This document shows positions 1-8,022 of a DNA stretch of 64,000 bases, in pieces. The DNA is from Escherichia phage vB_EcoS_ESCO40: sequence record NC_106514.1. One strand, written 5' to 3'. Each line of letters opens with the position of its first letter. The first letter of the stretch is position 1. Made by a program: the position numbers and the translations under genes. The notes beneath the pieces are model-generated. The model did not search any database. It was given only the letters and a program-made list of their open reading frames with translations, and was not told the origin of the DNA.

Positions 1-834
1 CGTAGATTAATTATTATTAGTGGTGCAGGTTTGAGTGTTGAAAGTGGTGTACGAGCCTTCCGTACTGATACTGCTAGTGGTAAAGCATTGTGGGATGATT
101 ATGATCTAGAAGAGGTGTGTAATATTCATGCCTTTCGTGGTAATTTTTACCATAAAACTCACGCATTTTACAATAAACGTCGTGAAGAGTTAGAAACTGT
201 TGAACCTAATCTTGCACACTTGCGTATTGGTGAATGGTATAAACAATACCCAGGTCAGGTAGTAAACTTGACTACCAACGTTGATGACCTTATTGAGCGT
301 GCTGGTGTTCCGCATAGTGACATTCTGCACATTCACGGATACTTAAAAGAGGTTGTTGTAGCTGATAGCTACAATAGTAGCAATAAACGAATTATTGATG
401 TTGGGTATAGCTCTATTGACCCAGATGATTATAAGTGGGTTAAACCTAATGTAATCTTCTTCGGAGAACATGCTCCAGCATACGCGGAGATGTACAATGT
501 TTTTGATGGTATTACCAGTCAAGATATGATTGTGGTGGTTGGTTGCTCTAACCAAGTAATTAACTTCTACTGGGAATTATTCCCTGTTCTTAATCGGACT
601 GCTGCGAAACTTATGGTAGTTAACTACTACGATAGTGCCTTAGCGGCGGAACCAGGCTATCAAGGTATGACTCGTAGTGATATGTACCAACTGGAAGATC
701 GTGATATTCCTTACTGGAGTAAAGGTGCGGTAGATGCTTTCAGTGACCCTGGTTTTATCGCTCGTGTAGAAGCTCATCTAGAGGGTAGACCTTATATGCC
801 GGAGAGAAGGGGAAACAGATATGTCCATAGTTAA
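1..834 (+). CDS. Sir2-family NAD-dependent protein (sirtuin-like), 5' end outside window
   Basis: Reading frame open to window edge; GAGLSVESGVRAFR glycine-rich NAD motif at codons 8-21, later TTNVDDLIERAG, HIHGYL and PNVIFFGE resemble sirtuin motifs. Confidence 0.7.
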   Translation, partial: RRLIIISGAGLSVESGVRAFRTDTASGKALWDDYDLEEVCNIHAFRGNFYHKTHAFYNKRREELETVEPNLAHLRIGEWYKQYPGQVVNLTTNVDDLIERAGVPHSDILHIHGYLKEVVVADSYNSSNKRIIDVGYSSIDPDDYKWVKPNVIFFGEHAPAYAEMYNVFDGITSQDMIVVVGCSNQVINFYWELFPVLNRTAAKLMVVNYYDSALAAEPGYQGMTRSDMYQLEDRDIPYWSKGAVDAFSDPGFIARVEAHLEGRPYMPERRGNRYVHS

Positions 835-1003
835 ATCTGTATATACACATCCCGATGATATATTTGTATGGGCGGATGGTAGTTGGTGTTATCGTTGTGA
901 GCTATGGGAAATGGACTATAAATCTGATGACTATGGTGTCATATATGTTGATACGGTTGAGTATGATACGTTCTTAGCAAGGGACAAAAATGGAAATAAG
1001 TAA
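821..1003 (+). CDS. hypothetical protein (60 aa)
   Basis: ORF overlapping the upstream stop by 14 nt; purine-rich stretch before ATG; no motif recognised. Confidence 0.35.
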   Translation: MSIVKSVYTHPDDIFVWADGSWCYRCELWEMDYKSDDYGVIYVDTVEYDTFLARDKNGNK

Positions 1004-1496
1004 TACTCCAATTATTTTTCTAGATATTGATGGGGTGCTCAACTCGAGCATCTCTCATCACCATGCACCTGATGATGAAAAGATTTTCTTTGGAAGTGAC
1101 TGGGTTTTTAAACCGCTTCTCAAGGCTTTTCAGGACTTTATTCGTCCTTCTCCAATAATGATTGTTGGGGTATCTTCATGGTTCTCTGTCAGGAATGAGA
1201 TGGAGAACGTTCAGATTATGACCGGATTAGATCTTATCGATCGTTTTCTTGGTACAACGGATTTTACTGGTGGTGGGCTATCTAGGGGTAATTCTGTTCT
1301 TCGCTTCGTTGAAAAGTATAAGCTCAAACATTGGTGTGTGCTGGATGACGCTGGTGCTATGATGTATCAGTATCCAACGGTTATAGTCAATGGTAGAACT
1401 GGAATAAATCTTCAAGATTTAAGAGCTGTTAGCTATATGTTAGAATTTAGTCCAGATCTTGAAATGTGTAAAGCCCTACAACAATTTAAGGTGTAA
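990..1496 (+). CDS. HAD-superfamily phosphatase-like protein
   Basis: FLDIDGVL (HAD motif I, DxDG) near N-terminus and VLDDAG (motif IV-like). Confidence 0.6.
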   Translation: MEISNTPIIFLDIDGVLNSSISHHHAPDDEKIFFGSDWVFKPLLKAFQDFIRPSPIMIVGVSSWFSVRNEMENVQIMTGLDLIDRFLGTTDFTGGGLSRGNSVLRFVEKYKLKHWCVLDDAGAMMYQYPTVIVNGRTGINLQDLRAVSYMLEFSPDLEMCKALQQFKV

Positions 1497-2521: not shown

Positions 2522-2548
2522 ACCGAGTCATTTTGGCTCGGTTTTCTC
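2522..2548 (+). terminator. putative intrinsic terminator
   Basis: Stem AACCGAG/CTCGGTT with 9-nt loop followed by TTCTCT. Confidence 0.4.
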
Positions 2549-2589
2549 TGTACTCAAAGACACTGATAGCACCATCCGGAAAATTTTAC

Positions 2590-2618
2590 TTGCATGATAC
2601 TCAAAATCTTGATATAAT
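2590..2618 (+). promoter_or_regulatory. T5-type early promoter (family member P1)
   Basis: TTGCAT-17 bp-TATAAT followed by conserved initial transcribed sequence ATTTATATTGAATTGAGAGA. Confidence 0.7.
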
Positions 2619-3118
2619 ATTTATATTGAATTGAGAGACATTAGTAAAAATTGGTTTTACTAATTTTTCTTGTTTACAATCCGCGATACGGAACAGTTAG
2701 GCTGCCCCATTAAGGGTTGTTTTAACTGTTACGTGTTAGTTTTTAAACAAATAGTTAATAGAATACTTAGCGATCTGCGTCCCATAGGAACCCTGGTAAG
2801 GCCTCGAAGCAACCTAGTATGAGGTGGTTGTGAAGTGAGATGGGAGGAGTGAAAAACTACCGAGACGTGATTCTGTAAGTTATATTGCATCTAGTATGAG
2901 CTAGTATATGAAGCATTAGGTGAGCAAATCTGGCTTAGCGGCCATCCTCAAGGATTTGTGCGGTATAATGAGGCAGCAGCGCAGCGTGAAAGTGGAAGTT
3001 GCCACCCCACTTCAGTATTTGCGATTAATTTGTTGAGAAATTGACAGTAACAGTTGTTCTATTCTTTCTGAATAGTCCTAAAGAAAACTTATTTCATTTC
3101 CAACACAGGAGTATTGTT

Positions 3119-7693: not shown

Positions 7694-7990
7694 ATGACCA
7701 AAGCTGAAATTATCGCACAGTGTGAAAAATTTGGTGAGTTTTATCTTCATTACGAGAAACTTCGTCAGAAAGGAACCACGTACCTTCAGGGTACAATGGA
7801 ATTTGATCCGGCCCAAGATAAATATCTGGCTGAGCGTATTAAACGTGAACGTATTCGTAAAGCGAAAGATGATGAAATCCTTGTCTTCTCTCGTACTAAT
7901 GATAGCTTCCGTTTTATTCCTGTCGAGAAAGTTCGTCGTGTGACTAGCCTCCAATCAGAGTTAGATCGTGCTTCTCCAGTAGGCCGATAA
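7694..7990 (+). CDS. hypothetical protein (98 aa)
   Basis: AAGGA RBS; followed by a strong intrinsic terminator. Confidence 0.5.
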   Translation: MTKAEIIAQCEKFGEFYLHYEKLRQKGTTYLQGTMEFDPAQDKYLAERIKRERIRKAKDDEILVFSRTNDSFRFIPVEKVRRVTSLQSELDRASPVGR

Positions 7991-8000
7991 GAAAACAATT

Positions 8001-8022
8001 AGCCCCTATATGGGGCTTTTTG
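8001..8022 (+). terminator. intrinsic terminator
   Basis: AGCCCC-TATAT-GGGGCT hairpin followed by TTTTT. Confidence 0.7.

Follow-up and report, generated by a model that had tools for sequence, protein, structure and literature searches.

A phage-clade sirtuin and a capless HAD phosphatase in an operon of a T5-like phage: a possible NAD+-dependent RNA-end-healing pair

We analyzed a 64,000-nucleotide (nt) stretch of Escherichia phage vB_EcoS_ESCO40 (NC_106514.1; the window), which opens with a sirtuin gene (Sir2, 1–834) and carries, two genes downstream, a gene for a HAD-superfamily phosphatase (990–1496), both on the + strand. Judged by its sequence, the first gene encodes a canonical CobB-like sirtuin with intact catalytic residues, and the two genes are exactly the T5-type pair of Iyer et al. 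(2022). Following the prediction made in that study, we suggest that the pair may form a T5-type phage NAD+-dependent RNA-end-healing module, a tentative reading whose chance we put somewhat below even. The feature is already known and the present analysis adds little to it as a finding: the gene has been annotated since 2005 and the pairing was interpreted in 2022.

The window is T5-like phage DNA. Over its first 3 kb it shares 97.3% identity with Escherichia phage IrisVonRoten (Bas32, Tequintavirus), and this part matches 529 phage records, nearly all of them T5-like. The product of the first open reading frame (ORF) matches Pfam SIR2 (PF02146) with an E-value of 2.6e-24 and 86.6 bits (cut-off 24) over profile positions 1–178 of 180, and PHROG phrog_2162 ('Sir2') with an E-value of 7.5e-119. 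The closest PDB sequence is Escherichia coli CobB (1S5P), at E 5.8e-18 with the single sequence and at E 3.4e-31 with a 47-sequence profile. An AlphaFold2 (AF2) model of the protein (predicted local distance difference test [pLDDT] 90, predicted template modelling score [pTM] 0.88) was compared with the PDB by Foldseek. The top match was again 1S5P (E 2.2e-17, target TM-score 0.84), followed by Sir2Af1, SIRT5 and Sir2Tm, with E-values in the range 1e-13 to 2e-17; the predicted structure belongs to the sirtuin fold. The NCBIfam matches were all to 'NAD-dependent protein deacylase' models. The protein missed the CobB equivalog cut-offs (NF040867 / NF001753), with 90.8 vs 320 bits and 101.6 vs 243 bits, and is a divergent relative rather than a CobB orthologue.

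Residue conservation was measured over 47 phage homologues (54–85% identity), with numbering from the first codon of the window. The NAD-site residues G8-A9-G10-x-S12, S15-G16 and F20-R21 are invariant, and the cofactor motifs GAGxS and SG(I/V)xxFR are present as G8-A9-G10-L-S12 and S15-G16-V-R-A-F20-R21. Also invariant are F56-Y57-x-x-R60-R61, P69-N70, H73, T92-N93-V94-D95, H112-G113, K148-P149-x-V151-x-F153-F154-x-E156, G181-x-S183-x-x-V186 and N208. The nicotinamide C-pocket was recognized from the alignment of N93-V94-D95 and H112-G113 with the N-I-D and the HMHG His of CobB, the latter corresponding to the catalytic H112. The acyl-pocket sites of CobB were located through engineered entries (A76G, Y92A in 6RXS, I131C/L and V187Y), and they map to C40, Y57, V94 and V151 (from A76, Y92, I131 and V187, respectively). 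C40, at the A76 position, is an invariant Cys across the phage clade. CobB R95, for which there was no variant title, maps to R60 on the same alignment and on the known features of class III sirtuins. The class III Tyr-x-x-Arg pair (Y57 and R60) is kept, and is invariant in the clade. Because the CobB pocket positions map across, the NAD site, the catalytic base and the class III anion-binding Tyr/Arg are all in place.

An earlier note on this DNA, made from the letters and a list of ORFs, had identified a Sir2-like enzyme and a HAD phosphatase from short motifs, and both identities stand on the profile matches (SIR2 at E 2.6e-24 and HAD_SAK_2 at E 3.4e-19). The sirtuin motifs that it named are all in frame 1: GAGLSVESG at residues 8–16 (nt 22–48), TTNVDDL at 91–97 (nt 271–291), HGYL at 112–115 (nt 334–345) and PNVIFFGE at 149–156 (nt 445–468). 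It had also stated that a missing Sir2 profile match, or the loss of the catalytic His/Asn positions, would count against the assignment; the SIR2 match is strong, and H112, Asn93 and Asp95 are invariant in the 47 homologues.

The phage clade departs from other sirtuins at several points. In the TQN(I/V)D motif, Thr replaces Gln throughout the clade; to our knowledge, nearly all sirtuins carry Gln at this position. A clade-specific C-terminal helix region (consensus GAVxAF...FI..VE.HLEG) cannot be aligned with the CobB sequence, and is followed by a variable tail. The Cys4 zinc module is absent: every clade member lacks Cys between H112 and K148, and the segment is replaced by a Cys-free three-stranded sheet that AF2 models with confidence. 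The loss of the zinc cysteines was noted in 2016 for a Vibrio phage Sir2/CobB (PMC5107563). In a pattern-limited search of 185,579 species-representative genomes, the sirtuin signature motifs were met at 5 loci, the two best on short contigs of metagenome-assembled genomes (MAGs). This is consistent with a phage-restricted sirtuin lineage. Because these few loci are weak or MAG-borne, there is no cellular counterpart for comparison.

The HAD protein (990–1496) matches Pfam HAD_SAK_2 (PF18143, 'HAD domain in Swiss Army Knife RNA repair proteins') with an E-value of 3.4e-19 and 70 bits (cut-off 27.5) over profile positions 1–138 of 139. The two motifs that had been pointed out earlier in this ORF, DIDGV (residues 12–16, nt 1023–1037) and VLDDAG (residues 117–122, nt 1338–1355), are present. 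The catalytic set D12-I-D14-G-V, S62/S63, R99 and D119-D120 is invariant in 15 homologues, so that all four HAD motifs are accounted for; we infer that R99 is motif III. The AF2 model (pLDDT 93.7) predicts a minimal HAD core with the Rossmannoid fold, with a beta-hairpin flap as the sole addition, and thus a capless HAD. Its structural neighbours include the protein phosphatases SCP1, Fcp1 and UBLCP1, T4 Pnkp is absent from the top 60 structural matches, and no sequence relative was found in the PDB at E ≤ 1. Capless HADs generally act on macromolecular substrates, as established in the HAD classification. A polymer end or a protein is therefore weakly favoured as substrate over a small NAD metabolite. 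The C-terminal half of the HAD also matches PHROG phrog_18062 at E 1e-57, a family labelled 'Sir2 (NAD-dependent deacetylase)'. This mislabelled family is probably the reason why RefSeq gives 'Sir2 (x2)' and T5.105 is called Sir2. Salmonella phage SP_Thor has a truncated HAD of 117 aa on record.

The two genes are linked, as their pairing in the earlier note suggested, with the correction that the HAD gene is not the next one: a conserved ORF of 60 aa (orf60) lies between them. Among 59 IMG/VR sirtuin loci, the order Sir2–(orf60)–HAD–DUF7415 was found in 28 of the 31 Demerecviridae loci. In one T5-like locus (L008) the genes are rearranged yet remain linked (nrdD–x–HAD–x–x–Sir2). In another (L025, IMGVR_UViG_2706796320, a 108-kb T5-like genome), a natural 1.3-kb deletion at 7769–8012 relative to other T5-like phages takes all of Sir2, as well as orf60 and ∼60 codons from the beginning of the HAD gene, those for the catalytic DxD among them. 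Three T5 relatives have Sir2 without the HAD, namely two Klebsiella Sugarland-like phages and Pectobacterium phage DU_PP_V; all three keep DUF7415, and orf60 is kept in the two Klebsiella phages only. Overall, the sirtuin was found in 1,006 phage records (T5-like, rV5-like, phi92-like, Klebsiella myoviruses, Vibrio schizoT4-like and jumbo phages) and the HAD in 493, nearly all T5-like.

The sirtuin and HAD genes are under strong purifying selection. The dN/dS values of all five operon genes, measured against four relatives, are 0.05–0.2 (∼0.08 for Sir2 and 0.06–0.11 for orf60). Between IrisVonRoten (L001) and DaisyDussoix (L004), both T5-like phages of the BASEL collection, protein identity is 51% for Sir2, 53% for orf60, 90% for the HAD and 70–72% for DUF7415; the flanking PhoH, nrdD, small ORFs and primase are 92–99% identical. 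The Sir2/orf60 segment (window 1–1003) is thus an allelic hot spot, a pattern that would fit an arms-race role. The window Sir2 resembles a Klebsiella myovirus sirtuin (62% identity) more than the DaisyDussoix allele (52%), which suggests that the cassette has been exchanged between phage families. The composition profile is unremarkable at the operon, and in the absence of a GC anomaly there is no sign of its recent acquisition. In the CRISPRi-ART knock-down screen of T5, T5.102, T5.103, T5.104, T5.105 and T5.106 were scored 'Not Fit' and T5.107 'Fit' (PMC11879866, supplement), the last being the sole 'Fit' gene among T5.102–T5.107. The HIDEN-SEQ data do not cover T5 genes. The genes are conserved and selected, yet dispensable in the laboratory, and therefore have an accessory, condition-dependent profile.

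T5.102 has been called Sir2 since the T5 genome paper of 2005 and the label is routine in T5-like genomes, which settles the doubt, raised in the earlier note, about annotation in T5 relatives. In DU_PP_V and vB_Kpn_3 the Sir2 gene is mislabelled 'tail assembly protein'. A distinct phage sirtuin clade with three conserved neighbourhoods was described by Iyer, Burroughs, Anantharaman and Aravind (Viruses 2022; PMC9503650, section 3.7.3). These authors already reported the neighbourhood of the sirtuin and a 'Swiss-army-knife' (SAK) HAD in T5-like phages, predicted that the sirtuin acts like KptA/Tpt1 in the NAD+-dependent stripping of 2'-phosphates from RNA, and mentioned a few phage sirtuins of the defence kind (HerA-linked or Macro-linked). 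The window holds their type 3 neighbourhood, that is, a clade sirtuin and a SAK-like HAD with no adjacent Macro gene, and Pfam searches detected no Macro domain in the operon. Literature searches returned no experimental study of any phage-clade sirtuin, of T5 Sir2 or of this HAD.

RNA-end healing by the pair would proceed as follows: (i) a host nuclease would cut tRNA or mRNA, leaving 2',3'-cyclic phosphate or 2'-phosphate ends; (ii) the sirtuin would move ADP-ribose (ADPR) from NAD+ onto the RNA 2'-phosphate; (iii) the His-activated ribose 2''-OH would resolve the adduct into nicotinamide, ADP-ribose 1'',2''-cyclic phosphate and a clean 2'-OH, a Tpt1/KptA type of chemistry on a sirtuin scaffold; (iv) the HAD would strip the terminal 3'/2'-phosphate from the RNA, or dephosphorylate the ADP-ribose-phosphate by-product; and (v) a host enzyme would seal the RNA, because no T5-like RNA ligase was detected in the window plus 49.6 kb of IrisVonRoten. 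The module would be accessory, and useful only on hosts that attack RNA. The sirtuin and Tpt1 reactions would be alike in that both pass through a nucleophilic attack on C1'' of NAD+ and then form a 1'',2''-cyclic species via the ribose 2''-OH. The more general proposal, that the clade acts on nucleic acid as a sirtuin-fold analogue of Tpt1/KptA and that the HAD cooperates with it, linking RNA repair to NAD+ recycling, is a possibility that we hold with low confidence. Because the RNA 2'-phosphate idea has already been published as a prediction, novelty would lie in its demonstration. Should it hold, a sirtuin would for the first time have a nucleic-acid substrate, and phage counter-defence against RNA-cutting immunity would have a new arm; should the protein be a deacylase, phages would be rewriting host protein acylation. 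About 1,000 sequenced phages bear the zinc-less sirtuin.

The gene neighbourhoods of other phages point to RNA repair. In rV5-like and Klebsiella KP12-like phages, Sir2 (58–62% identity) ends a same-strand cluster of Metallophos (a calcineurin-like phosphoesterase), RNA_lig_T4_1 (Rnl1), cREC ('cyclic-phosphate processing receiver') and an AAA_33 kinase, and the order Metallophos–Rnl1–cREC–kinase–Sir2 was found in 11–13 of the 59 loci. A 608-kb jumbo-phage contig has the order Rnl1–arginase–x–Sir2. The HAD is associated with RNA ligases as well: HAD_SAK_2 homologues lie 1.6 kb from a kinase–Rnl1–phosphoesterase cluster at three loci (L031, L036 and L037). In the T4-like Aeromonas phage Aeh1 the order is td–HAD_SAK_2–nrdA.1–denA–rnlA–DUF7415, with the HAD_SAK_2 homologue three genes from rnlA and the DUF7415 gene immediately past it. 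The latter gene (ORF299c, 77 aa; L116, 6296–6526), right after rnlA (RNA ligase 1), encodes a protein with 35% identity to DUF7415 protein b of the window. In an unrelated phage, therefore, an RNA ligase gene is flanked by relatives of two genes of the T5 operon. Since several independent lineages contribute such associations, the RNA-repair reading has real, if circumstantial, support. Many other neighbours of Sir2 in other phage types fall in no Pfam family; the rest include a nucleoside deoxyribosyltransferase-like gene, NAMPT and, on one jumbo contig, Rnl1.

Several observations weigh against RNA-end healing in the T5-like phages. A phmmer search of the window and of 49.6 kb of IrisVonRoten, a span with the pre-early region outside it, detected no Rnl1, polynucleotide kinase, cREC or rV5-type phosphoesterase, and Pfam searches with 10 larger hypothetical proteins gave only Band_7, Toprim and DUF7022. 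With no ligase, kinase, cREC or phosphoesterase detected, the T5-like healing pathway would be incomplete. E. coli also possesses a KptA of its own. The acyl-lysine pocket is conservatively kept, as in a plain deacylase, and because of this pocket and the missing T5-like RNA ligase, protein deacylation stays a close rival. Both proteins are acidic (pI 5.5 for the sirtuin and 5.3 for the HAD, with clade medians of 5.2 and 5.4), the clade-specific invariant residues are non-basic and no RNA-binding surface is evident, although pI is a crude test of such a surface and the evidence is weak. In phi92-like phages Sir2 lies about 30 kb from the RNA-repair cluster, and the association is partly a lineage effect. 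The three T5 relatives that hold Sir2 without the HAD also count here, and literature searches gave no biochemical or genetic test of a phage-clade sirtuin or of the HAD.

The sirtuin could instead be an ordinary NAD+-dependent lysine deacylase of the CobB/SIRT5 type that remodels host or phage acylation early in infection, with the HAD unrelated or directed at proteins, which we regard as only slightly less likely than RNA-end healing. This is the standard database annotation. The nearest relatives (CobB, Sir2Af1, SIRT5 and Sir2Tm) are all deacylases, as are the NCBIfam models matched. The catalytic His, the C-pocket, the FGE loop, C40, Y57, V94 and V151 are conserved, and R60 is the counterpart of the CobB/SIRT5 Arg that reads acidic acyl groups. 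The sirtuin is acidic, as is the CobB core, and protein phosphatases (SCP1, Fcp1 and UBLCP1) are among the structural relatives of the HAD. However, the scores stay well under the CobB equivalog cut-offs, the invariant Thr takes the place of the motif Gln, and the clade is old and phage-restricted, with its zinc module lost and its signature motifs at just 5 loci in the species genomes. A deacylase would also leave unexplained the repeated RNA ligase, kinase and cREC neighbours in other phages, no target is known, and knock-down had no fitness effect. A defence-like NADase or toxin, acting in host shut-off or superinfection exclusion through NAD+ depletion, is very improbable. NAD+ depletion is the effector role for which SIR2 domains of bacteria are mainly known, which was the premise of the earlier note, and the HerA-linked and Macro-linked phage sirtuins of PMC9503650 are a precedent. 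The protein nevertheless matches the canonical PF02146 and not a defence-type family, its knock-down is neutral, and the operon holds no HerA, SLOG, Macro, antitoxin or sensor partner; the neighbours of Sir2 in the operon region are nrdD, small ORFs, the HAD and DUF7415 genes and the primase gene. A PADLOC scan of all five operon proteins found no defence model at E ≤ 0.01, and the defence-type reading was dropped. T5 itself presumably depends on NAD+, via its NAD-dependent DNA ligase, which argues against a toxin of this kind.

The small module for nucleotide or NAD metabolites that the earlier note had suggested is possible, though weaker than the RNA-repair reading, given the capless HAD, its RNA-repair-named Pfam family and the RNA ligase, kinase and cyclic-phosphate partners elsewhere. 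Here the role of the sirtuin, perhaps in counter-defence, would be the turnover of NAD+ or of an NAD-derived signal, and the HAD would dephosphorylate an ADP-ribose phosphate or a mononucleotide, as a non-homologous analogue of Adpp, the Macro-domain ADPR-1''-phosphate phosphatase of NARP1-AP. We consider it improbable. It is compatible with RNA-end healing, because a Tpt1-like reaction yields an ADP-ribose phosphate that needs a phosphatase. Serratia phages of the ChuuTotoro type have a HAD_SAK_2 gene that overlaps the beginning of a Prs-like plus NAPRTase-like pair, the architecture of Adps/Namat of NARP1, and this HAD may be a HAD-type counterpart of Adpp. At the two loci of this type (L009, 7001–10217; L010, 7001–10569), the HAD_SAK_2 gene overlaps the pair or lies one small gene upstream. 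NARP1 pairs are found 2–3 kb from the RNA-repair/Sir2 cluster in rV5-like phages, and one contig has NAMPT directly upstream of Sir2. In the rV5/Mydovirus-like phages (∼145 kb), the NAPRTase plus Prs pair is divergent from the phosphoesterase–Rnl1–cREC–kinase–Sir2 cluster, which sets an NAD+-consuming sirtuin near an NAD+-rebuilding pathway; the divergent NARP1-like pair was seen in L079, L081–L083, L093, L101, L102, L109, L124–L129 and L184. Phages are now known to have phosphatases that supply NARP1 with ADPR (10.64898/2026.01.28.702374), some T5-like phages bear the NAD+-rebuilding NARP3 pair (PMC13464706), and allelic hot spots between near-identical phages, such as Sir2/orf60, are frequent in host-interaction genes. 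Nevertheless, a HAD_SAK_2 relative was found within 6 kb of 3 of 80 NARP1-like loci, in no case adjacent and with weak E-values, which speaks against the HAD as a regular NARP1 companion, and this reading was demoted. No Prs/NAPRTase pair was found in the window plus the 49.6 kb of IrisVonRoten, capless HADs usually work on macromolecules, the sirtuin has a full substrate pocket rather than NADase features, and no defence or anti-defence model was matched. Independently of these functional readings, we judge it unlikely that Sir2 and the HAD are functionally independent accessory genes, brought together only by a common variable slot that lies between nrdD and the gene for the primase. The Klebsiella Sugarland-like phages and DU_PP_V, with Sir2 and DUF7415 and no HAD, fit such independence; most non-T5 Sir2 loci lack the HAD and most distant HAD homologues have no nearby Sir2, orf60 accompanies Sir2 more faithfully than the HAD does, and the identities between IrisVonRoten and DaisyDussoix (51% for Sir2 vs 90% for the HAD) point to different recombination histories. 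Against it, 28 of the 31 Demerecviridae loci have the two genes linked, the linkage survives the reordering in L008, both genes are lost jointly in L025, and in other phages each family separately co-occurs with RNA ligase genes.

The Sir2 ORF is cut by the left edge of the window. In IrisVonRoten the ATG of bas32_0053 ('Sir2-like protein') lies 3 nt to the left of the position matching window nt 1, so that the window opens at the second codon; the TTG at nt 31, given as the start in the ORF list, is an edge artefact. The gene, the T5.102 orthologue, spans 1–834 (277 codons plus stop). The start of an early block, as the earlier note had described this position, is likewise produced by the window edge: in relatives, nrdD and two or three small ORFs lie immediately upstream of Sir2 on the same strand. 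In T5 the operon, an early one, comprises T5.100–T5.107, downstream of nrdD, with the Sir2 and HAD genes in its middle, and the RefSeq record (NC_005859) places a promoter ahead of T5.100 and a terminator behind T5.107. The counterparts there are T5.102 (Sir2), T5.103/T5.104 (the small ORF, in two copies), T5.105 (HAD) and T5.106/T5.107 (DUF7415).

The further genes of the operon are all on the + strand. The orf60 gene (821–1003; T5.103/T5.104 family, phrog_5116 at E 3.4e-29, no Pfam family matched) shares 14 nt with the Sir2 gene and 14 nt with the HAD gene, the T5.105 orthologue. It adjoins Sir2 in most T5-like loci and in two non-T5 loci on ∼90-kb contigs (L087 and L089). The copy number of the phrog_5116 ORF varies, with two tandem copies in T5, one in the window and in IrisVonRoten, and none in the T5-like loci L067, L068, L072 and L073. 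Two paralogous DUF7415 genes follow, for protein a (1499–1927; T5.106 orthologue; PF24187 at E 3.1e-31 in two stretches, and phrog_2502) and protein b (1937–2329; T5.107 orthologue; PF24187 at E 6.2e-31); DUF7415 genes after Sir2 are conserved across Demerecviridae. The final gene of the operon in ESCO40 is a 64-aa ORF (2319–2513; phrog_29527 at E 7e-38), found in a subset of T5-like loci only. An intrinsic-terminator-like hairpin (2521–2543, +) with a 10-bp stem and a T-rich tail (minimum free energy −14.5 kcal/mol, z −3.5 against shuffles) closes the operon, at the place equivalent to the terminator annotated after T5.107. Promoter-like sites within the operon were not in excess over the shuffled expectation. 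From the 14-nt overlaps, the lack of an internal promoter signal and the terminator-like hairpin, the genes apparently form one tightly packed transcription unit.

Between the hairpin and the primase/origin-binding gene, which begins near 3041, lies a non-coding gap of ∼500 bp (2544–3040) that is AT-richer (GC 0.33 at 2251–2750); T5 has a promoter annotated in the equivalent gap. Across the whole 64-kb window, an Rfam scan at the gathering threshold found no RNA family and ARAGORN found no tRNA gene. In the closest relative, the T5-type tRNA cluster lies past the other end of the Sir2 operon, upstream of nrdD/nrdAB.

When compared with known systems, the phage sirtuin is most similar to E. coli CobB (1S5P and 6RXJ), a class III sirtuin and deacylase that is its best match in both sequence and structure. 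The two share GAGxS, SGxRxFR, N-(I/V)-D, the HG His, FGE, GxS, the Tyr/Arg of FYNxRR and a similar hydrophobic pocket. Unlike CobB (∼24% identity), the phage protein is encoded by a virulent phage, has lost the four zinc cysteines (a Cys-free beta hairpin stands there), and has Thr for the Gln of TQNID, the invariant Cys at the A76 position and a C-terminal helix region of its own. The defence SIR2 NADases (ThsA, DSR1/2, SIR2-HerA and those associated with pAgo) share its superfamily and cofactor; in contrast to them, it matches the canonical Pfam SIR2 only, has no PADLOC match and has no sensor or partner domain.

By the analogy drawn in PMC9503650, the phage protein would work like Tpt1/KptA. 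The established Tpt1 chemistry uses up NAD+, with nicotinamide set free and a 1'',2''-cyclic ADP-ribose product formed. The likeness would be functional, since the phage protein has the Rossmann fold of sirtuins and not the ART fold, and does not belong to the Tpt1/KptA family; it is also acidic, with no evident RNA-binding surface. We know of no sirtuin for which Tpt1-type activity has been demonstrated. The HAD resembles the SAK RNA-repair HADs and the HAD 3'-phosphatase of T4 Pnkp in Pfam membership, DxDx(T/V), full catalytic set and small capless build, and its SAK-like homologues sit near rnlA in Aeh1 and near kinase–Rnl1 clusters. Unlike SAK proteins and T4 Pnkp, it is a stand-alone HAD of 168 aa with no kinase or ligase fusion. 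MDP-1 (PDB 1U7O) and SCP1/Fcp1/UBLCP1, eukaryotic protein or sugar phosphatases, have 12–16% identity to it.

The rV5/Mydovirus-like sirtuins (type 2 of PMC9503650; 58–62% identity) have the same invariant residues, the same loss of zinc cysteines and a conserved early cluster. They are accompanied by a calcineurin-like phosphoesterase, a T4-type RNA ligase 1, cREC and a polynucleotide-kinase-like P-loop protein. For the T5 type, none of the four was detected in the window plus the 49.6 kb of IrisVonRoten, and HAD_SAK_2, orf60 and the DUF7415 proteins take their place. In NARP1-AP (Adps–Adpp–Namat), NARP1 is extended by a Macro-domain ADPR-1''-phosphate phosphatase, as a recent study showed (10.64898/2026.01.28.702374). 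The T5-type pair differs from that system, in which Adpp is a Macro-domain protein and not a HAD, and no Adps/Namat was found in the window plus the 49.6 kb of IrisVonRoten; what the two may have in common is the idea that a phage phosphatase works on an ADP-ribose phosphate.

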